Shown: positions 15,813-50,852 of the stretch, piece after piece
How positions within the stretch are numbered: the first letter of the stretch is position 1
How the letters are laid out: each line of letters starts with the position of its first letter
IMG/VR virus record: IMGVR_UViG_3300027747_002427
Strand: one strand, 5' to 3'
DNA from: a virus
Lineage: Duplodnaviria > Caudoviricetes
Length of the DNA: 64,000 nucleotides
Notes under the pieces: generated by a model
Told to the model about the DNA's origin: nothing
Database searches by the model: none
The model's input: only the letters and a program-made list of their open reading frames with translations
Position numbers and translations under genes: made by a program

Positions 15813-16429
15813 ATATAGTAACGATCTTGGTTTGTATCTATAGTACCGAAGTCCCAGGAGAGCTGTTTAGAGAAATAAGGAGACATACGATCATAGAGTC
15901 TGACTCTTGAGGGTTCTGCCTTAGAAGCTGAGAGTACAACTACGTTAATGTCGGGAATGTTTATACGTTTGAGATCCCCTTTGTCTTCCAGTGGCTTTAA
16001 AGTATCAAGACTTAGAGACTTTGGCCAGAGAACATCTTTCTTAGTTCTCTTAAATAGGATAGCCTTTTTGTAAACAAAGTCCTTGAGAGAAGACATAACC
16101 GTGCCGAATACTTGAGGAGATGACCCGGAACCCGTTAAGGCATGAGGATCCTTTTCGTCGTCTTCATAACCTTCTTCATTAAAGGATAGTATATAGGGAG
16201 CATTATTCTCTAAGGCTTTCTTGATATTAGGAGATAGCGTATCAACTTCCGTAGTAGAAAAGGTATCATAGATATAGGTTCTCAATAGATTAATAGCATA
16301 GTTAACATTAGATGGAGAAGTAAAGGAGCTTCTGTACATCTCATCACTTAAGAGTTCTATCCAACAAGAAGATGATGGACTATCGAATAGCTCTAATAAT
16401 AGAGAATGGACTTGTTTATCAAATTTCAT
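15797..16429 (-). CDS. Hypothetical protein with MKFD...LLLE N-terminal motif
   Basis: 210-aa ORF. Confidence 0.55.
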   Translation of the reverse strand: MKFDKQVHSLLLELFDSPSSSCWIELLSDEMYRSSFTSPSNVNYAINLLRTYIYDTFSTTEVDTLSPNIKKALENNAPYILSFNEEGYEDDEKDPHALTGSGSSPQVFGTVMSSLKDFVYKKAILFKRTKKDVLWPKSLSLDTLKPLEDKGDLKRINIPDINVVVLSASKAEPSRVRLYDRMSPYFSKQLSWDFGTIDTNQDRYYIYVRK

Positions 16430-16683
16430 TTCTTTTTCCAGGAGATACGTTTAGATCCCTTCTTGAGCTTCTTTCTATTATTACACATGGCCATAGTAGG
16501 TCGACAAGCTGGATAACCTTTACGCTTCTCTCCTGCTTGACGACCACAGGACTTACCAGTCTTGCAATCCACCCAGCCCTTGTGACCATCGGCTCCTCGG
16601 CGAGAGAACCAGCCATGAAGACCCTGTTCTTTTTCTTTCTCAAAGCCTTCTAAGATAGTAGTAACTAAAGAATCAAATCTCAT
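16426..16683 (-). CDS. Small basic Cys-containing protein (start reassigned to MRFDSLVTTILE)
   Basis: WVDCKTGKSCGR...YPACRP motif; ATG overlaps the stop of the upstream ORF. Confidence 0.6.
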   Translation of the reverse strand: MRFDSLVTTILEGFEKEKEQGLHGWFSRRGADGHKGWVDCKTGKSCGRQAGEKRKGYPACRPTMAMCNNRKKLKKGSKRISWKKK

Positions 16684-16841
16684 TTCTTTTTCCAGATCTC
16701 TCCTCGGCGACATCTTACAACGGCACCCGACTTATAGGCCGAGGTCTTCTTTCCATAGACTGCATCGGCTTTTCTAAGACAACGATCTCGTTTGACCTTC
16801 TTTTCTTCTAGGATATTAGCTACTAAGGTATCAAACTTCAT
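16680..16841 (-). CDS. 53-aa basic protein missing from the ORF track
   Basis: MKFDTLVANILEEKKVKRDRCLRKADAVYGKKTSAYKSGAVVRCRRGEIWKKK; TAAATA upstream. Confidence 0.6.
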   Translation of the reverse strand: MKFDTLVANILEEKKVKRDRCLRKADAVYGKKTSAYKSGAVVRCRRGEIWKKK

Positions 16842-16909
16842 ATAGTATTATTTATAGTATTGTCGGGAGTTTTCTCCAATAATATAATATAGTAGAATAA
16901 ATAATAATA

Positions 16910-17359
16910 ATGAAATTCGATAGACTATTTAAACAATATAGTGAAGGTTATAGAAGACCCTCATATCTTCCTCATTATACTAAGACCTGGCATGATTATA
17001 GAGATCAACAAAACGATCGCAATCATGGACTCGAAAGAGAAGAAGAACCATTAATACCTGCTGGGTATTATAAAAGTAACCCGGAAACCGATCTTAAAAC
17101 CCAAGTATTAAGAAACAAACGTACCGGAAAATATATGATGGCCAGAGAAGATAAAACCAAAATTGCTACCTTTAAGTCTATTAGTCACGCAAAGAATGTC
17201 TTGAGTAAATTTAAATTCGGTGCCAATGATATGGAGATAGTCGCCGCGGATAGTTTATCAGAACCCGACAAGGAAAAAATATATCAAGCACCAAGACAAC
17301 CAGATAAATTTAAAACTATCTGGGGAGTACCTAATGTCCCAGGCGGAGATATAGATTAA
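16910..17359 (+). CDS. Hypothetical protein with MKFD N-terminal motif
   Basis: 149-aa ORF preceded by TAAATA. Confidence 0.55.
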   Translation: MKFDRLFKQYSEGYRRPSYLPHYTKTWHDYRDQQNDRNHGLEREEEPLIPAGYYKSNPETDLKTQVLRNKRTGKYMMAREDKTKIATFKSISHAKNVLSKFKFGANDMEIVAADSLSEPDKEKIYQAPRQPDKFKTIWGVPNVPGGDID

Positions 17360-17918
17360 TACAACCCTATAAAATAATAGAACATTAGATTCTATTAAAG
17401 TATTATATAGAATAGTATATAGTATAGAATTGATATAACCGATTTAATAGCACTCTATGATTTAATACAACATGATGTTCTATTAACGCATTTTTACTAT
17501 CATAACCAAGAAAAAATACCCCCTTTCAATAAAGAAAAGTTGTTAAAAATAAGGGAAAAGTTGTTAAAAATAAAGAAAAAGTATTCTTTTCCCGGGAATT
17601 ATATTCTAGTAATAATACCCCTTATAAGAAGAAACCTATTATGTTATAGTATAAAATAAAGCTAATAACACCTTTTCCTCCTATATAAACAACTCTATAT
17701 ACTTTCTCAATTAGCTATTAATAGCACTTTAAGCAAGTCAAATCAAGTATACGTTCCACAAAATCCCTTATAGCTCATATAAAGACTATTAAGTTACATA
17801 AGAATCTATATAAAGACTTTAAACCCCCAAAATATTTCCTCGGTTCTTTCCCGGGAAAACATAAAGAGAAAAAGTGTATAAACCTTCCGCCCCCCAAATT
17901 TTTCCCCAGACCAATTTA

Positions 17919-17947
17919 ATTTTATAGGAATTTTAGGGAAAAGTCAA
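17919..17947 (-). promoter_or_regulatory. ORF-less copy of the early promoter repeat
   Basis: TTGACT-tttccctaaaattccta(17)-TAAAAT on the minus strand. Confidence 0.6.
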
Positions 17948-17996
17948 GGAAAAAGGAGGATATTAGGAAACCCCACCCAGATAGAGGGGTATTTGA

Positions 17997-18080
17997 TAAC
18001 GACCGGTTGTTAACTTTTTTAACGACCGGTCGTTGAGATTTATAACGTCCGGTCGTTAATTTCTTAATGACCGGTCGCTA
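17997..18080. repeat. Four tandem 16-bp palindromes, consensus TAACGACCGGTCGTTA
   Basis: Copies at 17997, 18020, 18043 and 18065 (period 23/23/22). Confidence 0.9.
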
Positions 18081-18143
18081 GAGATTTTGGATTTAGGTAT
18101 TCTAAAGTGGGGGAAAGGGAAACTCACGTCAAAAATTCTAGGC

Positions 18144-18172
18144 TTGACCTTTCCAGAGAATTCCTATATAAT
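18144..18172 (+). promoter_or_regulatory. ORF-less promoter copy (convergent pair, left)
   Basis: TTGACC-17-TATAAT. Confidence 0.75.
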
Positions 18173-18207
18173 ACCCTAGGTGCAGCCGGCATTTGGGGTC
18201 CAGTTCA

Positions 18208-18236
18208 ATTATATAGGATAATAGGGGAAAGGTCAA
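18208..18236 (-). promoter_or_regulatory. ORF-less promoter copy (convergent pair, right)
   Basis: TTGACC-17-TATAAT on the minus strand. Confidence 0.75.
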
Positions 18237-18350
18237 GCTTCGAATGCGCTAGGAATTTGAGCAGCCTCCAGTACCCTACCCTCGGATTGTCACACCCTGT
18301 TCGCCCTGTTATTTCGGATCGAGGCTCTTCCGTGTTCTGATTATGTATAT

Positions 18351-18379
18351 ATTCTATAGCAATATGGGGGAAACCTCAA
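18351..18379 (-). promoter_or_regulatory. ORF-less promoter copy
   Basis: TTGAGG-tttcccccatattgcta(17)-TAGAAT-ATATAC followed by ATA instead of ATG. Confidence 0.65.
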
Positions 18380-18437
18380 GCCTATAATTTCTCAGAATCT
18401 TCTTTTCTTTTCCTACAATCCCTATTATAATAAGGGC

Positions 18438-18617
18438 ATGAAAAATAACAACACCACAGTAGACGAGTATTACGAGAACGTGATGAAGGCCGCTAAGACC
18501 CTGGAGGAGTACTATGAGAAGATGGCTAACTTCACTCCAGTTCCCGAGAACAAGAAGACCTATCAGATGTTTAGGAGGGAGATGAGGGATCTTTGGAAGA
18601 CCCACGCTGCCTATTAA
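18438..18617 (+). CDS. Cassette gene, 59 aa (MKNNNT...), missing from the ORF track
   Basis: TATAAT-6 nt-ATG; GC3-rich codons. Confidence 0.7.
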   Translation: MKNNNTTVDEYYENVMKAAKTLEEYYEKMANFTPVPENKKTYQMFRREMRDLWKTHAAY

Positions 18618-18656
18618 GATCTTGAGTTTTCCCACAATAACCTATATACTAAGAGT

Positions 18657-18896
18657 ATGAAAAATAAAAACAAGTACCCCATCAACGGATCGATCATGGA
18701 AGGCGTTAGTGTTCGCACAGGCGTCCATCAATATGATGATAAGAATAGAACGGTAGTAGAATTGACCTTCCAGGGCTATAATAGCTCCTATGTCCAGGTC
18801 ATAGATATTAACACCGCGGCGAGCCTTATTAAACAGCTTAGGGAGCAAGGTATTGCCCAGGCTGAGTATATTACAGCCGCCGAGGTATTCGCTTGA
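18657..18896 (+). CDS. Cassette gene (MKNK)
   Basis: Promoter repeat upstream; stop lies in the next -35 box. Confidence 0.75.
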   Translation: MKNKNKYPINGSIMEGVSVRTGVHQYDDKNRTVVELTFQGYNSSYVQVIDINTAASLIKQLREQGIAQAEYITAAEVFA

Positions 18897-18927
18897 TCTT
18901 TCCCCCTAAAACCTATATACTAATAGT

Positions 18928-19176
18928 ATGAAAAATAAAGAATACACCATCAATACAGATCCCAAGGGCCTCGACTACATCATTGGTAACTACCATATGT
19001 ATCGAAGCGATGTCTACGATGCCTTGGAGAAGCTTCAGCAATACCTAGATGATTCTCACGTTAAAGCCGTTCTAGAGAGCGAGGATCCTGAGATTCAAGA
19101 GCGTTTGAGTGAGGAGTGCCTCCATCTTGACTTCACTACCTTTCTAGAGGATCTCAAAGGAGCCATGGGATACTAA
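18928..19176 (+). CDS. Cassette gene (MKNK)
   Basis: Promoter repeat upstream. Confidence 0.75.
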   Translation: MKNKEYTINTDPKGLDYIIGNYHMYRSDVYDALEKLQQYLDDSHVKAVLESEDPEIQERLSEECLHLDFTTFLEDLKGAMGY

Positions 19177-19351
19177 ATAGATATATGATCGAAGATACTA
19201 CCAAGCATCCGACTGGTGAGTTACCCCCTACTCCGGAGCCTCCTAAGTTCCCAGAGCCTGTGATAGCTCCCCCAGTACCTGCACCTACAAACGAATAACC
19301 CTATCACATTTGGTTCTTGAGTTTTCCCACTAAACCCTTTATACTTAAAGT

Positions 19352-19537
19352 ATGAAAAATAAGAACACCGTAAAGGATATCGTCACCCACCTGGAGTCCA
19401 CGGGCAAGTCCCCGGACTACATCATCGGAACCCTGATGGCCATGCTCGATGGTCTCACCTATGAGTATAGTGGGACCGCGCAGCAGACCATCGATAGTTA
19501 CATCAACCACCACCTCAACCCCAATACCAACGCCTAA
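19352..19537 (+). CDS. Cassette gene (MKNK), KSPDYII paralog family
   Basis: Promoter repeat upstream; similar to ORFs 15630 and 32795. Confidence 0.75.
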   Translation: MKNKNTVKDIVTHLESTGKSPDYIIGTLMAMLDGLTYEYSGTAQQTIDSYINHHLNPNTNA

Positions 19538-19538
19538 T

Positions 19539-19877
19539 ATGGGAGCCTACATCTACCGCCTCAAGGGCAGCAAGGCCTTCACTCTGATGAAGATTGATGG
19601 CCAGATCCAGCGAGTCTATGACTACGTCTATTGGTACAAGCCTTACTATACCGGCATGTTCGAGAGTGAGCCTAAGTGGATGAAGCCTGTTCGAATGCTT
19701 GATACTCGCCTCCGTAACGCGTTTGCAAAGGTTGAGCCTGTTAAGTGGGTTCGCCACGTCAATGATATGGGAGAGAAAGATGACTACATTATGGAGTGGC
19801 CTGGCGGTATTAGCATTAGCGATTACAACGAGCGCTATCAGAATGCTCGTAGGATCCCAGTAAGCGATTTGGCTTGA
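19539..19877 (+). CDS. Hypothetical protein coupled via TAATATG
   Basis: Start MGAYIYRL directly after the upstream TAA; stop in the next -35 box. Confidence 0.65.
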   Translation: MGAYIYRLKGSKAFTLMKIDGQIQRVYDYVYWYKPYYTGMFESEPKWMKPVRMLDTRLRNAFAKVEPVKWVRHVNDMGEKDDYIMEWPGGISISDYNERYQNARRIPVSDLA

Positions 19878-19908
19878 GATTTCCCCCTAAACCCATTATA
19901 CTAATAGT

Positions 19909-20109
19909 ATGAAAAATAAAGACCACGACGAGATCATCACCACCCACAACCACCGCCTCATCCGCCTTGACGCCCAGAAGAAGTTCGTCGAGCAGATGAT
20001 TAAGGACCTTCAGGTGCAATATACTACCCTCAGCGATGACTGGGACGAGACCTGGAGGAGCCGGCAGTATTACATTAACAGAGAAGAAGAGAGTGCCGTT
20101 ACCACCTAA
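19909..20109 (+). CDS. Cassette gene (MKNK)
   Basis: Promoter repeat upstream. Confidence 0.75.
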   Translation: MKNKDHDEIITTHNHRLIRLDAQKKFVEQMIKDLQVQYTTLSDDWDETWRSRQYYINREEESAVTT

Positions 20110-20128
20110 ACCCTAGATAATAATATAT

Positions 20129-20572
20129 ATGAATAAGAAAGCCACCTCACCGCTCCTAGAGCTCACCGCCACCTCCTCCTATAATAGCCTCCAGAAGGCC
20201 GTAGAAGGCCGTTGTAAAGACCGTAGTCGCGAAGGCAATGTAGGTCTTACCTTCTCTATCTTTGAGACAAATAAGACCTTGGATAAGGGTCTGGATAGTG
20301 GAGACTGGATTGTCAATCACCCAGATATCTTTGATGAGGGCGCCGTATTCGAAGGTAAGTGCGTCTTCTATAGCGATTACTGGAGGATCTCTGATAAAGA
20401 GGTCTACAGCGAAGTAATGGAACACCCAAGCTGGAGGGAGATCATTAGCGAATGTAATCGCCAGTTGATTGATCAAGAGGATGGTAGCACCGCTTGCCTC
20501 TTCCTCGAGGGCTTTACCGAGATGGAACCTAAAGACGGAGTCCGAGTCTTCGAGATCGATTGGGGTTCTTAG
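20129..20572 (+). CDS. Hypothetical protein
   Basis: Partial promoter repeat upstream; HVFLEGF-like CLFLEGF motif. Confidence 0.6.
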   Translation: MNKKATSPLLELTATSSYNSLQKAVEGRCKDRSREGNVGLTFSIFETNKTLDKGLDSGDWIVNHPDIFDEGAVFEGKCVFYSDYWRISDKEVYSEVMEHPSWREIISECNRQLIDQEDGSTACLFLEGFTEMEPKDGVRVFEIDWGS

Positions 20573-20610
20573 AGGTTGACCTTTCCCCCTAAATCCTTTA
20601 TACTAAGAGT

Positions 20611-20850
20611 ATGAAAAATAAAGCATATCAGTTCTCCATCATGTCGGAAGAAGAACGCTCTATACATCTCTTTTATACCATTGAAGGTATGGTAGAGACC
20701 TTAGAGCTGATTGGTAAGCAGCTTGATACAGAAGCTCTTAATGGAGCCTCTCGCCTCGCTAAGCTTGCAGATATTAACGAAGAGATCGAATTACTCTTCT
20801 TGAGAGTTCACAAAGACTACCACGCAAACAAAACCAAGGAAGCCATCTAA
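20611..20850 (+). CDS. Cassette gene (MKNK)
   Basis: Promoter repeat upstream. Confidence 0.75.
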   Translation: MKNKAYQFSIMSEEERSIHLFYTIEGMVETLELIGKQLDTEALNGASRLAKLADINEEIELLFLRVHKDYHANKTKEAI

Positions 20851-21085
20851 TATGACCTATAGGAAACTAATCGCCCATCTCCAAGAGAAATACGCAGAGC
20901 ATCTGGATGATCCTGTAAAGCTCGAGTCTATGCACGATAACGCGATTTATCACGTGTTTAGCGCGCGTACAGCGCATAAAGATGTGCCTTATGACGACAT
21001 CAAAGAGGATGATCTCATTCTACTAATCGAATATCCACACTAATTGGGGGTTGACTTTTCCCCGGTAATCCGTTATACTAATAGT

Positions 21086-21757
21086 ATGAAAAATAAGAAC
21101 AAGCAAAAGAAGATTTCCAGGAAACAAGCCATCGCTGATTCCCGGGTACCAGTAAAGGTTTCCCGGAAACGTATTCCCAAGAACGAGCGTATCAACAAGG
21201 CAGACCAGTTTGAATACCTAGGAATTGATACCTGGGTAAAGACTTTCCAGGGAACTAAGAAGTTCCCACATAATAAGATTACCTGTTCTGAATGCCGGCA
21301 TAATACGGTTTCCATGTTTGGTAACCAGCTAGCGAATTACCTGGCAAAGTATAACGGGGATACCCGGAAACTCCTTACCGAGTTCAAGTGTCGCGTATGT
21401 CGTTCCCTGGACAAAGAGGCTATCAAGTTGAAGGAGCCTAAAGAGCCTAAGGTAAAGGTAGAAAAGGAAAAGGTATTCCTTTCCCCGGAAGAGTGGGAAG
21501 CTCGTAAGGAGGAGGTTCGTAAGACCCTTCCTAAGATGGATCCTAACTACCAAACCCAGGAAATCGATTTGGTTAAGGACAAGGAGACGTGTTCCCAGGT
21601 AACAGCCATGGCATGCTGGCGCCCAGACATCTTCCTCAATCTCGGATGCGCCGAGTGTGTTCTACAGAAGAATTGTGCTTGTCCAATTAAGGATATCAAT
21701 CGTATTCCAGACAATCGCCCAAGGAAATTCAAGAGGGCAGTAACGAAAGCCGCTTGA
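21086..21757 (+). CDS. Cassette gene (MKNK), Cys-rich putative zinc-binding protein
   Basis: CSEC...CRVC and a C-terminal C..C...CAEC...CAC cluster. Confidence 0.7.
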   Translation: MKNKNKQKKISRKQAIADSRVPVKVSRKRIPKNERINKADQFEYLGIDTWVKTFQGTKKFPHNKITCSECRHNTVSMFGNQLANYLAKYNGDTRKLLTEFKCRVCRSLDKEAIKLKEPKEPKVKVEKEKVFLSPEEWEARKEEVRKTLPKMDPNYQTQEIDLVKDKETCSQVTAMACWRPDIFLNLGCAECVLQKNCACPIKDINRIPDNRPRKFKRAVTKAA

Positions 21758-22001
21758 TAAACGTTTAACCTATAGTATTATTTTAATATGCACGTATGGC
21801 AATCAAAGAGAGTTTTAAAGACAGGACCTATCTACCAAGTACCTACTTGGGTAAAGAACCGACCGAAGGCAATAGCTACAGCGGACTGGGAGCAGATGGT
21901 AAAGGACTTCAAGTTCAACAAGCTTATTGTACTAGATAAGGTTCCTAAGACTAGTAAGAAAAAGAATTTCGCAACAAACGAAAGAAAGGAAAACAACAAC
22001 A

Positions 22002-22238
22002 ATGACAAAAACAATCGCTAATACGATCGTTCGCAATATCAGTGATCTCACTGGCCGCACTGTCTCCAGCCGTACAGGCAAGGCAGCAAAGCTTGAGCTG
22101 ATCTCTGAGAGCATCAATGAGAGTCGCTATGAGATTCTCGGTCTCGTTGGACGCAGTAATAACGTCATGCTTCGCCCACGTTTTCACAACGTGCGTAACA
22201 AGCAGGGCCGCTTCACTGCTCGCCGCCGCAGCCGCTAA
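22002..22238 (+). CDS. Small basic protein with RNKQGRF motif
   Basis: 78-aa ORF with GC3-rich codons. Confidence 0.6.
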   Translation: MTKTIANTIVRNISDLTGRTVSSRTGKAAKLELISESINESRYEILGLVGRSNNVMLRPRFHNVRNKQGRFTARRRSR

Positions 22239-22243
22239 AGATT

Positions 22244-22322
22244 AAGGGTCTAGTGAATAGATTGCAGGGAGAGCCTGCTCGGGAAGTTTTTATTCCTCAT
22301 TGAACACACTAGACCTTTTTCT
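22244..22322 (+). terminator. Branched terminator-like RNA
   Basis: 12-bp closing stem (22244-22255/22307-22318) with two internal hairpins, then a T run. Confidence 0.5.
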
Positions 22323-22628
22323 TTCTTTTTAGATTGACATTTCCCCCTTAATCCTTTATTATATATACATGATTGATTCAAACCTGTATCGCAAAATTGA
22401 AATGGCCGGCGAAGCACTTCTCGCTGATTACAAGCTAACCTATCCTGATATGAGTGATAGTCAGATCCGTACAGATCTTCTTCTTAATCACGGATCGAAG
22501 GTTATACACATGAGTGTAGATAATGATCTCCTAGAAGGAATCATTGATAGCGATCGTCAAGACGATCCAGAGTACAAGGCTCTCCTTCTTATAGCTGGAG
22601 TATACTTCGTAACCCTCTAACCCTTTAT

Positions 22629-22704
22629 GCCTGTGTAGTCCAACGGCAGAGACAAGCGACTTAAAATCGCTCCAGTATCGGTTCGAATCCGATCACAGGT
22701 ACCA
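22629..22704 (+). tRNA. tRNA-Leu(UAA), short variable loop
   Basis: GCCTGTG/CACAGGT acceptor stem, AGCGA-CTTAAAA-TCGCT anticodon arm, GTTCGAATC, encoded CCA. Confidence 0.85.
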
Positions 22705-23293
22705 CTTTAAGATTGACCTTTCCCACCAATTGCTATAATATATAAACAATGAAACACCTCCTACACCTCTTAGGGTTTACTCAACGTAAGCCTTCACTCC
22801 TCCTCATGCATATGTGTGACGTCACTCACGGCACCTGGCTTCAGGATCTTTATCGTACCAATCGTCTTAGCGACTACAACGTAAAGAAGTAACATGATCT
22901 GGCCTAAAGACCCTCCAGTGACTCGTTCCGAATTCCGCCGAGCTTTGAATCTTCATTGTCATAATAAGCTTGGAGTCAGCTTCAGTGACCTTCCAGACAT
23001 TATCAATATCGATGACGTATGGTGGGAGGGACAGACCATTGGAGAAGCTCTCACTATGATTAACAGTTGTATTGAAGACTTTAAAGAAGAAATGGGTGTT
23101 GCACTTTCCCACTAACAGGAGTATAATAATAATAATATGATCATCGAATTCTCACCTGGCAAGTTACCAAAGAGTAAAGAAGCTTTGAAGGATATTATCC
23201 TCGAAGCAGTCAAGAAGTCTTCAACGAACCCTGATGCCGTTAATGCCGGCCGACAGCCTCAGGACAATAATACAAAGGCCGGCGTTACTCAAT

Positions 23294-23512
23294 ATGCAAA
23301 CTAAAGTCACACTCACGGATCTAATTCGTAATATCTTGACCGCAGAGCAGGAGTTGTCCGTAAAGGATATCCTTACTAAAGTACAAGAGACTATTGCAGG
23401 CGAGCAGCTGACCATCAAGGCCGATTACCGTAAGGTTTATCGTCACCTTCGTACGTGCGCCACTAAGACGGCACGCGGTCAGTTCTCCCTCACCGAGACC
23501 TCTGCCTCCTAA
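23294..23512 (+). CDS. Small winged-helix-like protein
   Basis: LIRNIL...LSVKDIL...KVYRHLR...RGQFSL pattern. Confidence 0.45.
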   Translation: MQTKVTLTDLIRNILTAEQELSVKDILTKVQETIAGEQLTIKADYRKVYRHLRTCATKTARGQFSLTETSAS

Positions 23513-23536
23513 AGGTAAGTCTCGGCAACCATCAAC

Positions 23537-23627
23537 ACTGGGTTAATGTAATTGGAAGCATCGCACAGCTTATATCTGTGAATCCCTAGATGAGGGACGA
23601 GCATCGGTTCGATTCCGATACCCAGTA
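23537..23627 (+). tRNA. Atypical tRNA, anticodon UAU, long variable arm
   Basis: ACTGGGT/ACCCAGT; ATGT/GCAT D stem; CACAG-CTTATAT-CTGTG; TCCCT/AGGGA variable stem; ATCGG-TTCGATT-CCGAT. Confidence 0.75.
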
Positions 23628-23816
23628 CTTTTTATGACAGACACCAACACAACATCGAAAGAAGCAAAAGTATTCGCACTCTGCCAGGACCTGGAAGATA
23701 TGCGAGATCGTAAGAAGGCATCTAGCAAAGCCTTTAGCGATGAGATCAAGCGTATTCAAGCGGAGATCAAGGATCTTATAGATCCTTCCGAGCCTGAAGA
23801 AGCTCCATAGTATTAC

Positions 23817-23889
23817 GCCCTTGTAGCTCAATGGTCAGAGCAGTCGGCTCATAACTGATTGGTTGGGGGTTCGAATCCCTCCGGGGGCA
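23817..23889 (+). tRNA. tRNA with CAU anticodon (Met or Ile2)
   Basis: Cloverleaf with a CTCATAA loop. Confidence 0.85.
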
Positions 23890-23895
23890 CTCTAT

Positions 23896-23971
23896 GCATC
23901 GGTAGCTCAGTGGATAGAGCAGGGGTTTTCTAAACCCTTGGTCGCAGGTTCGATCCCTGCCCGATGTACCA
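23896..23971 (+). tRNA. tRNA-Arg(UCU)
   Basis: Cloverleaf with a TTTCTAA loop and encoded CCA. Confidence 0.9.
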
Positions 23972-23974
23972 TTT

Positions 23975-24046
23975 GGAATCGTAGCTCAATGGTAGAGCAG
24001 TAGACTTTTAATCTATTGGTTATGGGTTCGAGTCCCATCGATTCCA
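23975..24046 (+). tRNA. tRNA-Lys(UUU)
   Basis: Cloverleaf with a CTTTTAA loop. Confidence 0.9.
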
Positions 24047-24127
24047 CTTTAATACAACAGCATGATATAATAGCGCCGGCCTCTCTATTATCGTGAATTT
24101 TCCCACTAAATGATTGATACTAATAGT

Positions 24128-24298
24128 ATGAAAAATAACAACAGTGCAGTTGCAGCAGAGATCGAAGCGCTCCACCAGGAGATCGCTACCCTCAAGGCCC
24201 AGATCAAAGATCTGGTTAACGTCACCAACAACAACAAAGAGGTCCTCTTCGATCTTCTCGAAGTCCTCAAGAACCCAGCCTCAGCATACCTCGTCTAA
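24128..24298 (+). CDS. Cassette gene (MKNN), coiled-coil
   Basis: Promoter repeat upstream. Confidence 0.7.
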   Translation: MKNNNSAVAAEIEALHQEIATLKAQIKDLVNVTNNNKEVLFDLLEVLKNPASAYLV

Positions 24299-24302
24299 TA
24301 AT

Positions 24303-24671
24303 ATGGCAACACGTTCCCAAGTTAAGTTCTCCGATCGCGGAGTAGTCGCAGCTAATATCTATGTCCACTATGATGGATACCCAGAAGGTGAAGCTGGTCG
24401 TCTCAATCAGCTTCAGCGCTTCTTTAAGTGTGTGAAGGAGAATTGCAGAGACACTCGCTTTCATGATGCAGAGTATCTTGCAGCCAAGTACATCGTTTGG
24501 TATGCTACAGAGTATTGTAAGGATGAGGAGAATCCCAAGCATGCTCTAGACTTCTCAGGCATTGGAATCTGTCTCGAGGACCATGGTGACATTGAGTACA
24601 CCTACCTGGTTGATTGTGACCATCACGATCCAGAGACTGGGTTCCCTACCGTCGATGTTAGGAAGCGGTAA
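24303..24671 (+). CDS. Conserved phage protein (MATRS...IYVHYDGYPEG type)
   Basis: Recognisable IYxHxDGYP motif. Confidence 0.7.
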   Translation: MATRSQVKFSDRGVVAANIYVHYDGYPEGEAGRLNQLQRFFKCVKENCRDTRFHDAEYLAAKYIVWYATEYCKDEENPKHALDFSGIGICLEDHGDIEYTYLVDCDHHDPETGFPTVDVRKR

Positions 24672-24738
24672 CATTTGAGGTGGTAAGGGGGGAAAGATTG
24701 TGGTGGTCTTTCCCCCCAAATCTCTTTATACTAAGAGT

Positions 24739-24891
24739 ATGAAAAATAAGAACACCGTCAAAGCCACCACAGTCATCAAGAACATCCGCCGCATGATCAG
24801 CCAGCCGGCCATGCAGGGACCGAAGCACCAGGCCTGGAGGGAGTCCTGGTTGCACGTCATCAAAGGTCTTGAGAGGGGCGAATCGATTTGA
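24739..24891 (+). CDS. Cassette gene (MKNK)
   Basis: Promoter repeat upstream; stop in the next -35 box. Confidence 0.7.
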   Translation: MKNKNTVKATTVIKNIRRMISQPAMQGPKHQAWRESWLHVIKGLERGESI

Positions 24892-24922
24892 TTTTCCCCC
24901 ATAAATCCTAGATAATAAATGT

Positions 24923-25147
24923 ATGAAAAATAAGAACACATTCGAAGAGATCATGAACGAGTACAAGGCCCTGGACCAGATGTTCAAGCAGATGGTCCGC
25001 AACACCGCGGTGATGGAGCTCAAGGAGTGGGGCGTCGAGGAGATCGGAAGCTCGGACGTGAACTGCCAGATCGTCGACCTCTACAACAGCTACGGCGGAT
25101 TCGACGAGATTGTCCGACATGGGTTGGACCTTGTCCGTAGCCGATAA
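24923..25147 (+). CDS. Cassette gene (MKNK)
   Basis: Promoter repeat upstream. Confidence 0.75.
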   Translation: MKNKNTFEEIMNEYKALDQMFKQMVRNTAVMELKEWGVEEIGSSDVNCQIVDLYNSYGGFDEIVRHGLDLVRSR

Positions 25148-25185
25148 GGATTGAAATTCCCACCTAAACCTCATATAATAATAGT

Positions 25186-25506
25186 ATGAAAATTAAGAAT
25201 GCACGTATGCAGTGGAGCAATGAAAAGCGTACCACGAAGTCCGTCCTCTACTTCTTCCCGGTTGGAGAGACCATCATAGACAACCTCGCTATGCGCCGTA
25301 AACGCCCTATAAAAGAGTTTCGCGCACTTATACCTGAAGTATGCGCAGCAGTAGGTCTCAATATGGCAGACCATAAGTTCAGCTGGAGCCAGAAGGCAGG
25401 TTGCTCTTGCGGTTGCTCGCCTGGCTTCGTAGTAAAGCATCTCTATAGTAAGCAGATCTTCTGCGATGTTACCATGGACAATGACTTCGAGGGTCTTGGC
25501 CTTTAA
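25186..25506 (+). CDS. Cassette gene (MKIK) with AGCSCGCSPGF motif
   Basis: Promoter repeat upstream; CxCxC metal-binding motif seen in other phage proteins. Confidence 0.75.
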   Translation: MKIKNARMQWSNEKRTTKSVLYFFPVGETIIDNLAMRRKRPIKEFRALIPEVCAAVGLNMADHKFSWSQKAGCSCGCSPGFVVKHLYSKQIFCDVTMDNDFEGLGL

Positions 25507-25543
25507 GATTGTCTTTCCCACCTAAACCCAATATAATAATAGT

Positions 25544-25816
25544 ATGAAAATTAAACAATACGTTATAGACCTCCTCACGTTCGGCTTCGTTGCTCTGGCC
25601 TTCAGTGCAGCAAGCGCCGGCCTCACCGCTGCCTACTATCAGCACCTCGCCGTGGTTCACAATGCCGCAACGTACGAGGCAAGCAGCTGGGGTAATGTAA
25701 GCTTCCACTGGAACGATGTTAGCTACGCGCAAGCACCCTTCCAAGACCCAGCGGAGACCCAGAAGAAAATGGATGACGCCTTCGCTAAAGAACTCAAAGC
25801 CAAAGGCATCAAGTAA
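25544..25816 (+). CDS. Cassette gene (MKIK), membrane protein
   Basis: Promoter repeat upstream; N-terminal hydrophobic helix. Confidence 0.75.
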   Translation: MKIKQYVIDLLTFGFVALAFSAASAGLTAAYYQHLAVVHNAATYEASSWGNVSFHWNDVSYAQAPFQDPAETQKKMDDAFAKELKAKGIK

Positions 25817-26078
25817 CACCTAACACCTACCTAATATGAAAATCACAGCTTCCACTAAAGAGAAACTTAAGCACGTGTCCTATGTAGTCGAGGACGTACC
25901 TAACTTCGGAACAGCCATTTACACTGATGTGTACAACGAGAATGATAGGATAGTCGATAGCTTCATTCGTACCGAAGACGGATACGCAATCGAAGCACCG
26001 GCTCTCTTCGAGACCATTCAGGACTTTGTATGCAGCAATAGTGTTGAGGTTTCTCCCTAAATGCTTTATACTAAGAGT

Positions 26079-26399
26079 ATGAAAAATAAGAACACCACAC
26101 TGACCGAGCTCGAAACCCAAATCCTCACCCTCCTGTTCAAGGACGCCGAGGGCAACGGCCACGACTTCGGCATCATCGAGAACCTCAGCGACTACGAAGG
26201 CGTCGACATGAAGGTCGCGCGCGGAGTCCTCAGCTCCCTGGTCCAGAAAGACATCATCACCATCCACGAGTATCGCTTCGAGATGGGAATGGAACAGGGC
26301 TGCACCCAGTTCACCTGGAACCACGTTCCCGCCGATATCTACCCAGAGAGCATCACCCACGTACTCCCAGAGAATGTAACCCTGGGAGTTGCAGCTTGA
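26079..26399 (+). CDS. Cassette gene (MKNK), possible winged helix
   Basis: Promoter repeat upstream; ARGVLSSLVQKDII resembles a wHTH; stop in the next -35 box. Confidence 0.7.
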   Translation: MKNKNTTLTELETQILTLLFKDAEGNGHDFGIIENLSDYEGVDMKVARGVLSSLVQKDIITIHEYRFEMGMEQGCTQFTWNHVPADIYPESITHVLPENVTLGVAA

Positions 26400-26430
26400 G
26401 ATTCCCACCTAAACATAATATAATAATAGT

Positions 26431-26673
26431 ATGAAAAATAAGAACATCCACCAACAGTATCAGGAAATCATCGACTCCATCAAGGCCCTCGGCACGGTCC
26501 GCATCCAGGAGGCTCTGGCGAACCTCGAGAAGGACTTCCAACTAACCTCCAACGTCTATGCTCGTATGGGACTCCTCGGAAGGATCCAGATGCATGAGAG
26601 GGCTCTCAAGGAGCTTACCAACACCGAGAAGAGCCTGGAGATCCTCGACGAAGCCTTTGCCACCCACGCCTAA
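26431..26673 (+). CDS. Cassette gene (MKNK)
   Basis: Promoter repeat upstream. Confidence 0.75.
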   Translation: MKNKNIHQQYQEIIDSIKALGTVRIQEALANLEKDFQLTSNVYARMGLLGRIQMHERALKELTNTEKSLEILDEAFATHA

Positions 26674-27094
26674 TATGGAACAACCTCCTAAAGATTATCA
26701 ACTGAAGTTAGTCATCGAGAAGCTGGAGAAGAGTTTAGACAAGCTCTCTGTCCTCGAATACGAAATCAAAGACGCCCTAATGTTAGCAGCAGACCTCTAC
26801 GAGAGAATCACCAACAACAACGACTAATATGAAGATCGAAACCAAAGCCTACGAAGTCCTAGAAGAGCTGATGGACGGAACCAACAAGCTAGAGAAGCTC
26901 TATAGAGCAGCAACTCATCGCCCAGACTCACCTTGGATTGAGAAGCCAGGACGCTTCGCAGACTGGGTAGGAGGCCAAATGCTAGAGGCCATGGAAGAAG
27001 AGCTTAGGCACCTAGAGCAGAGGTTCATTACAGATGAAGCTCTCCTAGCCATGGTAGATAAGAGCTAATATCATTTTCATACCCGCGGTGGGGT

Positions 27095-27130
27095 AAGGGA
27101 GGAGGTCTGTGGTGGGCCTCCTCCCTTTTT
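27095..27130 (+). terminator. Intrinsic terminator
   Basis: AGGGAGGAGG...CCTCCTCCCT-TTTT. Confidence 0.8.
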
Positions 27131-27168
27131 GTATTGTCTTTCCCCCATAAAGAGATTATAATAATAGT

Positions 27169-27534
27169 ATGAAAATTGAGAACACCACACCCACCGAAGC
27201 CCAAATCGAACTCGCCGGATACCTCCTCACGCGCGAGGTAACCTTCACCGAGGAGTGCGAGGCCAACCCCAAGATCCAGTGGTTCGCCGTGGCCAGCTAC
27301 ACCCTCGAGGACATCATGGGCCTCACCCCCTACCGCAGCGGCTACGCGGACATCGCCGAGTACGAGCACCAGGAGGACCTCATCGAGGCCAAGGAGGCTC
27401 GTAAGAACTCCTACTATGACTACGACGACGAGCAGCGCGCCTGGTTCGAGAAGGAAGAAGAGGCTCATCGAAACGCTCTCAAGGAGCTGGTGAGTTCCGA
27501 GTACAAGCCACTGGGGGTAGGACTCCCCCTTTAA
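27169..27534 (+). CDS. Cassette gene (MKIE), acidic
   Basis: Promoter repeat upstream; almost all codons end in C/G. Confidence 0.75.
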   Translation: MKIENTTPTEAQIELAGYLLTREVTFTEECEANPKIQWFAVASYTLEDIMGLTPYRSGYADIAEYEHQEDLIEAKEARKNSYYDYDDEQRAWFEKEEEAHRNALKELVSSEYKPLGVGLPL

Positions 27535-27572
27535 GGCTTGGCTTTCCCCCTTACTTGATAGATAATAATAGT

Positions 27573-27803
27573 ATGAACAATAAGATCACCATTGGAGAGT
27601 TAAAGAAAGGTCAGCGATTCAAGTACGGCAACAGCGGCATCTATGAGTGCGCCAACCCGTACTGGCCTCAGGCCCGGAACCCAGCCTACCGCTCAGCTAA
27701 GATCATCGTGGTAGTTCCATCAATCAACCCGGAGGCTACCTACCCAACAGTACCAGGCCAGTGTGTCACCTTCAATCACAGGACCAAAGTGGAGCTCCTT
27801 TAG
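27573..27803 (+). CDS. Cassette gene (MNNK)
   Basis: Promoter repeat upstream. Confidence 0.7.
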   Translation: MNNKITIGELKKGQRFKYGNSGIYECANPYWPQARNPAYRSAKIIVVVPSINPEATYPTVPGQCVTFNHRTKVELL

Positions 27804-27840
27804 ACTTTCTTTTCCCCCATAACCATTATATAATAATAGT

Positions 27841-28062
27841 ATGAAAAATAAGAACATCGAAGTAGGTTCCATCGTCACCCTCAACTCCAACACCGATCGT
27901 GTCCACCGCGTCACCAAGGTCGATGAGTTCGGCATCTGCACAACGCCAGCGGGAGGCCAGCCAGAGTACCAGTCCAGGTACGGCTCCTTCCCTCTCGCTT
28001 CCTGGGAGGTTGTTACCCTCGCTACAGAGGAGCAGCTCAAGCTAGTAGGCACCTGGCGCTAA
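27841..28062 (+). CDS. Cassette gene (MKNK), SH3/KOW-like
   Basis: IEVGSIVTL...HRVTKV pattern; promoter repeat upstream. Confidence 0.7.
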   Translation: MKNKNIEVGSIVTLNSNTDRVHRVTKVDEFGICTTPAGGQPEYQSRYGSFPLASWEVVTLATEEQLKLVGTWR

Positions 28063-28101
28063 GGGGTTGACCTTTCCCCCATTATAGGTTATACTTATAG
28101 T

Positions 28102-28404
28102 ATGAAAAATAAGAAGACCCAATACACCGCCACAGCCCCTAACGGAGACGTCCTCAGCGTCACCTCCACGCGCCCGCTGGTCGAGTGCCACGTCGCCATC
28201 AACAAGGAGACCAACGCCACGGGAGCCTACCGCTGGACCATCAAGCGCCAGGGCAAGGCCTCCGCCTCCTCCTGCGGCTACAGCTTCGGCTACGTGGGTA
28301 GCTGGTGCACGGACGCTGCCAAGTACAATGCCGAGGCCGACAAAGAGAAGGCCTTGCGCAACGCCAAGTACACCTTCCACATCGTCCCAGTGGTCGCCGC
28401 CTAA
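28102..28404 (+). CDS. Cassette gene (MKNK)
   Basis: Promoter repeat upstream. Confidence 0.75.
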   Translation: MKNKKTQYTATAPNGDVLSVTSTRPLVECHVAINKETNATGAYRWTIKRQGKASASSCGYSFGYVGSWCTDAAKYNAEADKEKALRNAKYTFHIVPVVAA

Positions 28405-28624
28405 GCTTAACGACCGCGGTCGGATACCTACCGGTCTTAATAGCGACCAGGGGTAATACTACCGACCGCGGTATGCTAGGACCCCGGACGTTCAAATTTG
28501 TTAATAGGGGAATAGCAAGCAGAAACGGCCGGGGGGCAATCCCGCGTATATAGGGGGGTACCCTGGTATTAAATCGCCAAAGTATTAAATTGCTATTCCC
28601 TTATATAAGTAATAATATATTTTA

Positions 28625-28993
28625 TATGAAAAATAAAGATCAAATCATGTTAGAGTCTCTGTATACTAATAGTATGAAAAATAAGAACACCAAGCCCGCC
28701 CTCAAAGCTCTCTTCCCTGGCCAGGAGGTCTCTGTAATGGGCTTCAGGGAGTATGGTAAAGTTATCGAGCGTCAAAAGGAGAAGGTTATGGGCAATACTG
28801 TCTATAGGGTCAAGTGTGAGGGTAAGGAGTTTAATGTATCTCGCCGTCAACTTGGCGTTCGAGTTAACAATATCTTTAAGTTCGGTCCTTACAATACAAC
28901 CGATCTTCCTGCTTGAAGTTCTAATCAAATTCCCTTATACTAATAGTATGAAAAATAAAGATCAAATCATGTTAGAGTCTCTGTATACTAATA
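28625..28993 (+). repeat. 47-bp exact direct repeat (28625-28671 and 28947-28993)
   Basis: TATGAAAAATAAAGATCAAATCATGTTAGAGTCTCTGTATACTAATA occurs twice, 322 bp apart. Confidence 0.95.
28674..28916 (+). CDS. Cassette gene (MKNK), SH3/KOW-like, between the 47-bp repeats
   Basis: FPGQEVSV...GKVI...VYRVKC pattern; stop in the next -35 box. Confidence 0.7.
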   Translation: MKNKNTKPALKALFPGQEVSVMGFREYGKVIERQKEKVMGNTVYRVKCEGKEFNVSRRQLGVRVNNIFKFGPYNTTDLPA

Positions 28994-29358
28994 AGGTATT
29001 GAAAGAGGACGAAGAGAATGGAGATAATGTATTAAAGAAGTATACCTATGAGATTCTTTATAGAACTGATTACAAATATGATCCTAAGACAAAGAAGGCT
29101 ATAAGTTGGTCTTATGGTTCTCATTCTAGAGGTTGGCCGGATCTCCGACATGAATTTGCTTATTCTGATGATGATTTTTGGTCTAAGATAGATGATTCTG
29201 GATATAGTGGTGGTAAGGATGAATTAAGAAAATCCATAGTTATTAAAAATGTTGAACCTGCTGATTTGAGAGAGGTTGAGCATGAGAAGAGAAAAAATAA
29301 GGCTATATCAGATTATTATAGTAATGCGAGTAAGACGGGTTCTTATTCGGGTGATTAG
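28948..29358 (+). CDS. Hypothetical protein with DQIMLESLY N-terminal motif
   Basis: Start reassigned to the promoter-linked ATG. Confidence 0.65.
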   Translation: MKNKDQIMLESLYTNKVLKEDEENGDNVLKKYTYEILYRTDYKYDPKTKKAISWSYGSHSRGWPDLRHEFAYSDDDFWSKIDDSGYSGGKDELRKSIVIKNVEPADLREVEHEKRKNKAISDYYSNASKTGSYSGD

Positions 29359-29380
29359 AGGAGGTTTCAGTTTAATAAAG

Positions 29381-29408
29381 AAAAAGGACTCTTCGGAGTC
29401 CTTTTTTT
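29381..29408. terminator. Bidirectional UUCG terminator
   Basis: AAAAAGGACTC-TTCG-GAGTCCTTTTTTT. Confidence 0.9.
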
Positions 29409-30830
29409 ATTGTTTTTCTTTTATGATCTCTTATAATAGAGACTATGAAAATTACTCGTTATGAACCAATATTAGCTGATTGGGGAGAACCGGATATGGT
29501 AGAGGATGATTATGGTTTTTATGTTACTCATTATGAATATACTAAGCTTTTAGAGAAGTATAAGCAATTAAAGAAAGAGAATAGAGAGCTTAAAAAGGCT
29601 TTTGAAGATGAGTATGATTGATTCTAAGAAGATAGCAGTTAAGTTAGGTCATCTCTCTATTGGTAGAGGTATCTATGATAGAGATGGAAAGAAGTATGTA
29701 AATCCTCATACCTTTGGAGATGATGTATATTTGGAAGATCCTACTAACTATCATTATATAAAGTATGAGAATGGTAAATTTGTAGATAGTGATGGATTTG
29801 TTATCTATATCAATTTTTAAGGGTTGAGGTTTCCCTTATAATTTACTATTATATATACATGCTTAAAAGAGATAATTGGACCATAGAAGAAGCAGAAGAT
29901 ATTCTATTAGGGAATACTATTGCCTATACTAAGAGAAACGGAGTCGCTATTGATGATCCGGAGTTCTATAGGAACATGGATCGTAATAAGGGTATCTATA
30001 AGGTTATTAATGATGTTAAGACTTCTCAGAAGTCTATTTGGACTAATAATGAGCTTATAGACCATATTGATAATAATCAGTTTAAGATGGATGATTCCTG
30101 GACCAAAGAGGAATGGGACTCTAAGGGACAATGGAATCAAGGTTTAGAACAATGTGCTATTCAATTTGGAGACTTTAAAGAAGATCCTGAAGAGTCCTAT
30201 AGTGCAATGGCCTATGATACTGAAACAAAGCGAATTTATGTTATTTCCCAACCACTACCACAATGAGAACATTTAATACAAAGAACAAAGAAGGACACCC
30301 TATTACGTTTAAAGGAATCAAGTATCTATTCCTTATTGATGATCAGGGAGTAGGCATTAGGAGAGCAGATAATAAAGTTCCTTTGCCAGAGGACATTGTC
30401 TCTCTTACAGACTATCTCTTTCAAGAAGGATTTGCTAACCCAGAGGATTTTGAAACAGAACAATAATATGAATACGGCTCAACACATTGCAAGTAGGAGG
30501 GTACAAGAATATAAGGTCCAGCTTCGAGGAGCCTATCAGGGGAACTATAGAGTTCTTTGTATGCGTAAAGAAGGTCTAGAGAATGAGACTCTTATTTTTA
30601 CGGATACAGAGAGACCACTTCAAATTTATAATAAGGATATTGAAGAATTGGTTATAGATGCTATATTAACCAAATAATATGCTCGTTTTATTACTCCTTT
30701 TTATTATAGCTTTGTATTATAGAGAGCACGGACCACTCTGAAATTGTACCCCCTTGATAAAAAAATTTTTTTGGCTCGGCGGGTTAATATACTCATTCCG
30801 GCGCGCGCTCTTGGTAAGTAAATAATAACC

Positions 30831-40309: not shown

Positions 40310-40744
40310 GGGGGCGTACTGGTTTCGACTCATACTCGAAGTTTGTATTGCACGCAGTAGTTGATCTGTGGCTACTTTAAAACGGATTAAAAACTAAATG
40401 CAAAGGCAATAACCAATGCAGTTGTGTCAGTCAAGTCATTCGTGACAAATATGGCAGAGAGCCTCTTCAGTAATGAAGATGAGCTTTGCCTTATGGCTGC
40501 TTAACAATAAGAGAGGATCCTATTAAATCTTTTATTATAATAATAGGTATAGAAGTACTTGCGATTCTTATAAAATAAGTGCAAGGGGTGGTATGTGGTC
40601 CTTAATCACACATATAGGCAGACTCTAAAAGATAGGTCGGTAAACCATAGGAGCCTTTAGTCAATCAAATCCTAAATTTACCTAAGCGTGTAGAAGTATA
40701 AATAGAATAGTATGAACACAGGGGTTCGACTCCCCTCGCTTCCA
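40310..40744 (+). ncRNA. ssrA: tmRNA
   Basis: 5' GGGGGCGTACTGGTTTCGAC; 3' GGGGTTCGACTCCCCTCGCTTCCA with a G3-U70 pair; tag ORF 40400-40504 ending LMAA*. Confidence 0.92.
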
Positions 40745-40763
40745 TTCCCTCGCCTCTACCATT

Positions 40764-50762: not shown

Positions 50763-50852
50763 GGAAGCTTACTCAAGCGGTTTACGAGAGCGGTTTACTA
50801 AACCGCCGAGCCTTCATCGGCTCCGTGGGTTCGAATCCCACAGCTTCCTCCA
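50763..50852 (+). tRNA. tRNA-Ser with ACU anticodon
   Basis: GCGGT-TTACTAA-ACCGC; long variable arm GAGCC/GGCTC; CCA. Confidence 0.85.

Follow-up and report, generated by a model that had tools for sequence, protein, structure and literature searches.

The 64,000-nucleotide (nt) stretch analysed here, IMG/VR virus record IMGVR_UViG_3300027747_002427 (hereafter the window), contains a transfer RNA (tRNA) gene with the anticodon UAU and a long variable region. An earlier note on this DNA, made from the letters alone, listed a full cloverleaf, the anticodon loop CT-TAT-AT, a 5-bp variable stem (TCCCT/AGGGA), discriminator A and one extra nucleotide before the anticodon stem, and every one of these items is present in the sequence (Table 1). 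What that first reading overlooked is the main feature of the gene: GAU, which the major isoleucine (Ile) tRNA has as its anticodon, stands in the loop of the variable arm.

ARAGORN, which had been proposed as a check, calls a 92-nt tRNA(tat) at 23537-23628 on the plus strand, one of 16 tRNA genes that it places in the window. When the focal region was searched alone, Rfam model RF00005 (local search) scored 42.5 bits (E 6.4e-08, span 23537-23627), above its gathering score of 29 bits; a whole-window run with default filters and the gathering threshold missed the focal tRNA and found the other 15 tRNAs together with a transfer-messenger RNA (tmRNA). The segment 23537-23627 is confirmed as a genuine tRNA gene. 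The features of an AUA-reading tRNA-Ile (UAU in a 7-nt loop, U33, A37 and discriminator A73) are all present. Measured against the E. coli-type set of Ile body determinants, the focal tRNA differs at G4-C69 and G12-C23 and agrees at C29-G41 in its true anticodon arm.

The earlier note allowed that the variable arm might be an assembly error or an intron. Contigs from an independent DNA run contain the exact focal letters, free of any indel or joint, and so do contigs of three lake metatranscriptome libraries, each from a different study. Because RNA-library contigs may contain DNA, they were used only against assembly error or a removed insert and not for transcription, ends or processing. Since the letters are identical across independent contigs, the gene is not an assembly artefact, and the arm is intact in the RNA-library contigs with no sign of removal, which argues against an intron.

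Relatives of the phage, recruited through ribonucleotide reductase, include two phage contigs from other metagenomes (G004 and G005) with an orthologous tRNA at 89% and 85% identity, and one of the orthologue-bearing contigs is a complete 140.5-kilobase (kb) genome with terminal repeats. The orthologues have G1·U72, and G2-C71 in place of the focal C2-G71, a change on both strands; their T-stem, anticodon stem and extra-arm stem differ in sequence and keep their pairing. RNAalifold applied to 24 diverse members of the wider family described below recovered four helices (acceptor, anticodon, extra and T), in which 18 of 21 pairs show compensatory changes. These substitution patterns indicate that the focal tRNA gene is under selection. 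A BLAST search of GenBank phages with the tRNA and its neighbourhood gave no match, and an exact 17-mer scan returned a single chance match that is not a tRNA.

Table 1. Coordinates of the parts of the focal tRNA gene and of two tRNA genes in the same block (bp, base pairs; MFE, minimum free energy)
Feature	Coordinates	Strand	Evidence
Whole tRNA gene, 91 nt, CCA not encoded	23537-23627	+	ARAGORN; Rfam; orthologues with compensatory changes
Acceptor stem ACTGGGT/ACCCAGT, 7 bp, A1-U72, C2-G71	23537-23543 / 23620-23626	+	Sequence
D-arm ATGT-AATTGGAA-GCAT, 4 pairs including U·G	23546-23561	+	Sequence; Rfam alignment
Linker CG, 2 nt between D-stem and anticodon stem (1 nt usual)	23562-23563	+	Sequence
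Anticodon arm CACAG/CUUAUAU/CUGUG, U33 and A37 present	23564-23580	+	ARAGORN; Rfam alignment
Anticodon UAU	23571-23573	+	ARAGORN; Rfam alignment
Variable region, 22 nt	23581-23602	+	Sequence
Second hairpin UCCC/GGGA, anticodon-arm-like	23583-23597	+	Sequence; MFE fold contains the hairpin; family statistics
Loop of second hairpin, UAGAUGA, 7 nt	23587-23593	+	Sequence
GAU triplet in loop of second hairpin	23589-23591	+	Sequence
Tail CGAGC, 5 nt, second hairpin to T-stem	23598-23602	+	Sequence; class I variable-loop length
T-arm ATCGG/TTCGATT/CCGAT, 5-bp stem	23603-23619	+	Sequence; orthologue compensatory changes
Discriminator A	23627	+	Sequence
tRNA-Leu(UAA), class I length, 73 nt plus CCA, G1·U72, without long arm	22629-22704	+	ARAGORN; sequence
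tRNA(CAU), called 'Met'	23817-23890	+	ARAGORN; feature parse

A family of two-arm tRNAs

The extra region was originally described as a class II long variable arm. The arm is indeed long, but class II geometry (a loop of 3-5 nt and a short 3' linker) is absent, the focal arm having a 7-nt loop and a 5-nt tail. To define the design, IMG/VR was scanned for a UAU anticodon loop, a class II-length gap and a T-loop, with the extra arm left unconstrained. This gave at least 118 loci, and ARAGORN on the listed loci called at least 72 long (82-95 nt) tRNA(tat) genes, at least 64 of them unique; the family counts given in this article are among the matches listed. GAU stands at positions 3-5 of a 7-nt loop in 57 of the 64 unique long-armed tRNA(UAU). 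The extra region of these 57 members usually comprises 2 unpaired nt, a 3-5-bp stem and the 7-nt loop, and the tail before the T-stem is 5-6 nt long in 56 of them. The loop begins with C or U; 54 members have A at position 2, 43 have U at position 6 (the focal gene has G) and 45 have A at position 7. The most frequent loop is CAGAUUA, and the focal one is UAGAUGA. In the stem the loop-proximal pair is C-G in 52 members and the third pair is C-G in 47, with five types of pair at the variable second position. The focal gene, with UCCC-UAGAUGA-GGGA followed by CGAGC on a UAU tRNA, fits this two-arm definition.

The bodies that carry the arm are highly divergent, some having plain class I D-arms and some a tiny D-arm. 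Selection has nonetheless maintained the acceptor, the T-arm, an anticodon loop with U33 and A37, and A73; the discriminator is A in 63 of the 64 members. Position 38 of the anticodon loop is A in 50 of 60 members and U in the focal tRNA. The nearest family members of the focal tRNA are G004, G005, L106, L007 and L030, and all five share its 2-nt linker. As controls, the same loci supplied 120 tRNAs for Ser, Leu and Tyr: their arm loops measure 3-4 nt in 102 cases, their tails 0-4 nt, and GAU occurs in the arm loop of none of the 120. Inspection of the anticodon loop, T-loop and tail revealed no conserved complement to the GAU loop. As a separate observation, the first acceptor pair, G·U in the orthologues, is also G·U in 13 of 24 two-arm tRNAs (alignment A2, columns 1 and 95) and in the short tRNA-Leu(UAA) of the window; such a pair is unusual for elongator tRNAs.

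Comparison with cellular tRNAs shows what the arm resembles. The anticodon arm of tRNA-Ile(GAU) reads CACGC-CTGATAA-GCGTG in a Bacillota genome and CACCC-CTGATAA-GGGTG in a cyanobacterium and a gammaproteobacterium. In the major tRNA-Ile(GAU) as in the phage arm, the loop has 7 nt, its third to fifth positions are GAU and its last is A; both have C-G at the equivalents of 31-39 and 29-41 with a variable 30-40 pair; the CCC-loop-GGG of the focal arm is the cyanobacterial and gammaproteobacterial form. Unlike in tRNA-Ile(GAU), the two loop positions on which ribosomal decoding depends are altered in the phage arm: A replaces the universal U33, U usually replaces A37 (G in the focal gene), and the arm sits beside a separate, canonical UAU anticodon arm that keeps U33 and A37. 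We conclude from sequence comparison that the second hairpin is evidently a copy of the anticodon arm of the major cellular tRNA-Ile(GAU). With its tail matching a class I variable loop in length, the molecule is equally well regarded as a class I tRNA that carries two anticodon-type hairpins in tandem.

The resemblance extends to bases that matter for aminoacylation. Bacterial Ile determinants comprise A73, C4-G69, U12-A23, D-loop bases and C29-G41, and further G34 or modified C34, A35, U36, t6A37 and A38 (PMC9976931). The second arm carries equivalents of G34, A35, U36, A38 and C29-G41. In the true anticodon arm, C29-G41 is found in just 13 of 60 family members.

The second arm is linked to the UAU anticodon. 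In a second scan the arm motif CAGATWA and the T-loop were fixed and the anticodon was left free; of the 80 carriers recovered, 76 have UAU, two are Gly(UCC), one is Leu(UAG) and one is odd. In the two Gly(UCC) genes CAGATAA lies within the variable region, with no clear hairpin around it. Other long-armed tRNAs in phage clusters have Thr, Gly, Trp, Pro, Lys and Gln anticodons (L086:4494-4577, L255, L300, L024, L058 and others); their arm loops are short, of GAAA type, and do not copy an anticodon.

The family is, as far as these scans indicate, widespread and mostly phage-borne. Members occur in the cultured Synechococcus phages S-SRM01 and S-SKS1, where they are unannotated in the GenBank records, in Sinorhizobium phage Phosso, where the gene is annotated as tRNA-Ile(tat), and in Acinetobacter phage vB_AbaS_qsb1. 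Standard pipelines under-call the two-arm family, and because it is unannotated in the two cyanophage genomes, phage tRNA inventories and codon-adaptation studies miss members. Bacterial genome contigs yielded 11 long tRNA(tat) genes among the 119 matches listed, some of them within arrays of 29-34 tRNA genes. PF01171, taken as a marker of TilS, matched strongly in four of five bacterial genomes with a long-armed tRNA(UAU), but archaeal controls match this marker too, which makes it of little value here. Clustering of open reading frames (ORFs) around the tRNA found no ORF family in more than 10 of 103 family loci. With no widely shared neighbouring protein, and with members across cyanobacterial, alphaproteobacterial and gammaproteobacterial phages, any partner of the arm is likelier to be a universal host factor.

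Decoding of AUA and the role of the second arm

Bacteria normally read AUA with a lysidine-modified CAU tRNA. For the focal gene three readings had been offered in the earlier note: an anticodon-switched tRNA charged with leucine (Leu), serine (Ser) or tyrosine (Tyr), which was its lead idea; a TilS-independent tRNA-Ile that reads AUA; and a decoy against anticodon nucleases. To see what AUA means in this phage lineage, we aligned 25 ORFs of the window with as many as 80 related loci and tallied the relatives' codon for each codon of the window. Opposite window ATA (1234 aligned codons) the relatives have 69% Ile codons and 3.1% Leu codons, which is close to the figures for ATT (77% and 2.7%) and ATC (86% and 4.1%) and far from those for TTA (6% Ile and 81% Leu codons). 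Selection therefore treats ATA as a synonym of ATT and ATC, and ATA is, by this measure of codon evolution, an isoleucine codon in the lineage. In practical terms, AUA in the window should be translated as Ile. We also rejected the possibility that the long-armed tRNA(UAU) had exchanged identities with the class-I-length tRNA(UAA), as TTA evolves as Leu and ATA as Ile.

Of the three readings, a TilS-independent tRNA-Ile is the one that fits the evidence, and the focal tRNA is probably a functional, Ile-accepting decoder of AUA. It would read AUA through an unmodified-type UAU anticodon, carry Ile and supply a heavily used codon, ATA accounting for 22 per 1000 codons in the long ORFs of this AT-rich phage.

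Why such a tRNA might need a second arm is suggested by work on the synthetase. In hosts of the TilS type, bacterial IleRS (isoleucyl-tRNA synthetase) inspects the wobble base and accepts U34 poorly. E. coli IleRS charges tRNA-Ile(UAU) inefficiently, owing to Trp905, a residue conserved in species with tilS, and the W905R substitution, which introduces the Arg found in Mycoplasma mobile, allows efficient charging of a UAU tRNA (PMC3575796). A tRNA with unmodified U34 is likewise a poor substrate of yeast IleRS (PMC11685878). A phage that needs a lysidine-independent AUA reader in many hosts cannot alter the host enzyme, and so could add determinants to the tRNA. In the mechanism we propose, the second arm would present IleRS with its usual G34-A35-U36 and C29-G41 determinants, and the canonical UAU loop would decode on the ribosome. 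Both hairpins would lie in one five-way junction in which either could stack on the D-stem, the arms possibly swapping; the 5-nt tail would serve as a class I variable loop, and restacking might be helped by the additional linker nucleotide that the focal subfamily has.

Our confidence in the parts of this proposal differs. The chances seem about even that the second arm is kept for a job tied to isoleucine identity. The full explanation that we regard as best, an Ile-charged AUA decoder whose second, GAU-displaying arm possibly serves IleRS, falls slightly below an even balance. That the arm is a specific recognition handle for IleRS we infer only tentatively, leaning somewhat against it, and a true division of labour, with amino-acid loading assigned to the GAU arm for IleRS and codon reading to the UAU arm for the ribosome, is possible but rather unlikely.

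Several observations weigh against the handle or against a need for it: (i) In the standard L-shape a variable arm is out of reach of the anticodon-binding domain of IleRS, and the idea requires an alternative stacking or binding mode that is hypothetical. (ii) The second arm has no equivalent of A37, and t6A37 is a strong determinant for bacterial IleRS. (iii) The near-invariant A at loop position 2 is not accounted for by IleRS recognition. (iv) The focal loop can close by pairing of U23587 with A23593, and the second hairpin would then be a 5-bp stem with a 5-nt loop. (v) A third scan, which used the same loop and T-loop pattern and allowed both class I and class II spacing, found 79 new loci, 66 of them with a class I tRNA(tat), and recovered about 41 of the earlier long-arm loci; the arm is thus present in roughly one in four phage tRNA(UAU) that match the pattern, and the other three quarters or so are ordinary class I. 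As class I tRNA(UAU) are common in phages, the arm is not required for a useful UAU tRNA. (vi) The discriminator is U in the orthologue of G004. (vii) Five other related phage contigs, one of them complete, contain no match to the tRNA, so the gene is accessory or dispensable. (viii) The family members are mutually related, and the counts given above are not counts of independent events.

The rival that survives best, unlikely as we consider it, accepts an Ile-charged AUA decoder and gives the second arm a role other than recruiting IleRS. The arm might steer or block the enzymes that modify the wobble U, keeping U34 from becoming an AUG-reading xm5U-type base; it might shield the tRNA from a host nuclease or stabilise a divergent core; or it might be left over from a tRNA-Ile(GAU) that acquired a UAU hairpin by insertion. 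The evidence for Ile identity and for selection on the arm fits such roles equally well, the A at loop position 2 and the U at position 6 are not IleRS determinants, and the abundance of class I tRNA(UAU) in phages implies that charging is workable without the arm. A UAU tRNA misreads AUG on E. coli ribosomes (PMC3575796), so control of the wobble base is a real need. What these roles leave unexplained is the exact Ile anticodon at anticodon positions, the C-G pairs of tRNA-Ile(GAU) and the near-restriction of the arm to UAU tRNAs, and a relic would not be expected to stay invariant across such divergent tRNA bodies.

It is improbable that the RNA has no part in translation and acts instead as a nuclease decoy or sponge, as a means of titrating IleRS, or as an element for processing or cleavage. 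Some phages are known to use tRNAs against defences that cleave tRNA, and the AG/AUU of the arm loop fits the loose RNase E motif RN-WUU. The acidobacterial allo-tRNA(UAU), moreover, was inactive in translation tests and has been proposed to be non-translational (PMC5389517). Against such a function, the acceptor, T-arm, U33/A37 anticodon loop and A73 are all under selection, and the gene lies within a tRNA cluster that fits A/U-ending codon use. If the arm were there to bait a GAU-specific nuclease, U33 and A37 should have been retained in it, and we found no evidence for the anticodon-nuclease decoy that the note had suggested.

The lead idea of that note, a class II-derived tRNA whose anticodon was switched to UAU and which inserts Leu (or Ser or Tyr) at AUA, now looks highly improbable. 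In its favour are the long extra arm, the discriminator A, a bacterial LeuRS that ignores the anticodon, and the D-loop AAUUGG, which we take to resemble that of tRNA-Leu. A nematode nev-tRNA(UAU) is charged solely with Leu in vitro (PMC3333845), and 7 of the 64 long-armed UAU tRNAs have Ser- or Leu-like bodies and short, GAAA-type arm loops. On the other side, ATA exchanges with ATT and ATC and not with Leu codons: a codon that makes up 2.2% of the total evolves as an Ile codon, a pattern incompatible with a tRNA that inserted any of the three class II amino acids (Leu, Ser, Tyr) at 2% of all codons. The geometry and sequence of the arm differ from those of all 120 canonical class II tRNAs of the same loci, and many family members have plain class I D-arms. 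A Ser-type identity is further excluded by A73, and recognition by TyrRS by the anticodon UAU, which lacks the determinants of that enzyme.

That the gene is decaying or non-functional can hardly be right, since its absence from several related contigs, the discriminator U of one orthologue, the lack of an encoded CCA and the extra nucleotide between the D and anticodon stems are set against four intact main helices, compensatory substitutions in the orthologues and an extra linker nucleotide common to the whole subfamily.

Genomic context

PHROG matches in the window include a tail fibre, a ribonucleotide reductase, a PurZ-like enzyme and a clamp-loader-like ATPase, and the window is therefore from a large uncultured phage; no close relative of it was found in GenBank. 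The sequencing runs that contain the window are lake and freshwater metagenomes. The focal tRNA lies in a block at 16-30 kb together with tRNA-Leu(UAA), tRNA(CAU), tRNA-Arg(UCU) and tRNA-Lys(UUU), and this tRNA cluster matches the phage's use of A/U-ending codons. The block (16000-30000) has 40-49% G+C, against about 32-35% elsewhere, and is dense in small ORFs with five tRNA genes.

The tRNA(CAU) of the block has G1-C72, C4-G69, U12-A23, C29-G41 and G27·U43. It is not an initiator, because of G1-C72, and its stem features are the E. coli-type determinants of Ile and not of Met. If it is a lysidine-dependent tRNA-Ile2, as it may be, the phage would have two readers of AUA; the alternative is an elongator tRNA-Met. 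Among the matches listed, a tRNA(CAU) stands directly downstream of the two-arm tRNA at 17 of 72 loci, and it does so in two cyanophages as well; C4-G69 is present in 16 of the 24 tRNA(CAU) neighbours of two-arm tRNAs.

Short 'Leu' tRNAs of 73-78 nt with the same type of D-arm as the short tRNA-Leu(UAA) of the window recur at many phage loci with a two-arm tRNA(UAU). In G005, a related phage, the place of this short tRNA is taken by a class II Leu(UAA) of 91 nt. The trio of two-arm tRNA(UAU), tRNA(CAU) and short tRNA-Leu(UAA) is found at 22629-24047 in the window, at L402:1501-2234 and at L403:1496-1877, its carriers being the window phage, the T4-like cyanophage S-SRM01 and the cyanosiphovirus S-SKS1. 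This distribution points to a mobile cassette of tRNAs that serve AUA, AUG and UUA.

Three further genes of the window deserve mention. A full-length tmRNA at 40310-40747 on the plus strand (438 nt) scores 92.4 bits with Rfam, and ARAGORN gave no report of it. A tRNA-Ser with the anticodon ACU (A34) lies at 50763-50852 (+). An ORF at 52312-53310 (+) belongs to the adenylosuccinate synthetase family of PurZ type, which acts in the 2-aminoadenine pathway (phrog_1211, E 2.8e-68); judged from this match, the DNA of the phage may contain diaminopurine in place of adenine.

Comparison with known AUA-reading and long-armed tRNAs

Alone among the sense codons, AUA has required special wobble chemistry (lysidine, agmatidine, pseudouridine) or an altered synthetase in every domain of life. 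If the handle is real, a tRNA with a copied Ile anticodon arm would add a fourth way of getting AUA-reading tRNAs charged. It would also be a natural synthetase determinant outside the decoding anticodon, useful for tRNA engineering, and a case of identity-by-proxy through which phages could decode AUA whatever the host, with no need of lysidine or of a specialised IleRS. A full-text literature search found no published description of a two-arm tRNA-Ile design, and a tRNA-dependent DNA hypermodification system that came up as a candidate (PMC13219725) proved unrelated.

Two kinds of long-armed tRNA with a UAU anticodon have been described. The nematode nev-tRNA-Ile(UAU) shares both properties with the focal tRNA, but it is eukaryotic, derived from tRNA-Leu, charged in vitro with Leu alone and weakly expressed (PMC3333845); no GAU loop has been described for it, whereas AUA in the focal lineage is Ile by codon evolution. 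The allo-tRNAs of Acidobacteria and others, bacterial or phage-associated, are long-armed and non-canonical, with UAU among their commonest anticodons. They are defined by an acceptor/T stack of 8/4 or 9/3, a tetraloop capping a long D-stem, a discriminator G73 or U73 and a Ser-type identity (PMC5389517). The focal tRNA, by comparison, has a 7/5 stack, A73 and an extra hairpin that resembles an anticodon arm. To judge from these features, the focal gene is outside the definitions of both nev-tRNA and allo-tRNA(UAU).

Closest in its presumed job is tRNA-Ile2 of M. mobile, which reads AUA as Ile without lysidine (PMC3575796). This tRNA and the class I phage tRNA(UAU) share with the focal tRNA a UAU anticodon in a U33/A37 loop and A73. 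In M. mobile the charging problem is solved by Arg865 of IleRS and the misreading of AUG is solved on the side of the ribosome (PMC3575796). The hosts of the focal phage, in contrast, presumably have a standard Trp-type IleRS. The M. mobile and class I phage tRNAs are ordinary class I molecules, to which the focal tRNA adds a GAU-displaying arm. By this comparison the two-arm tRNA would be a new architectural variant of the AUA-reading tRNA-Ile, with an attractive candidate mechanism.

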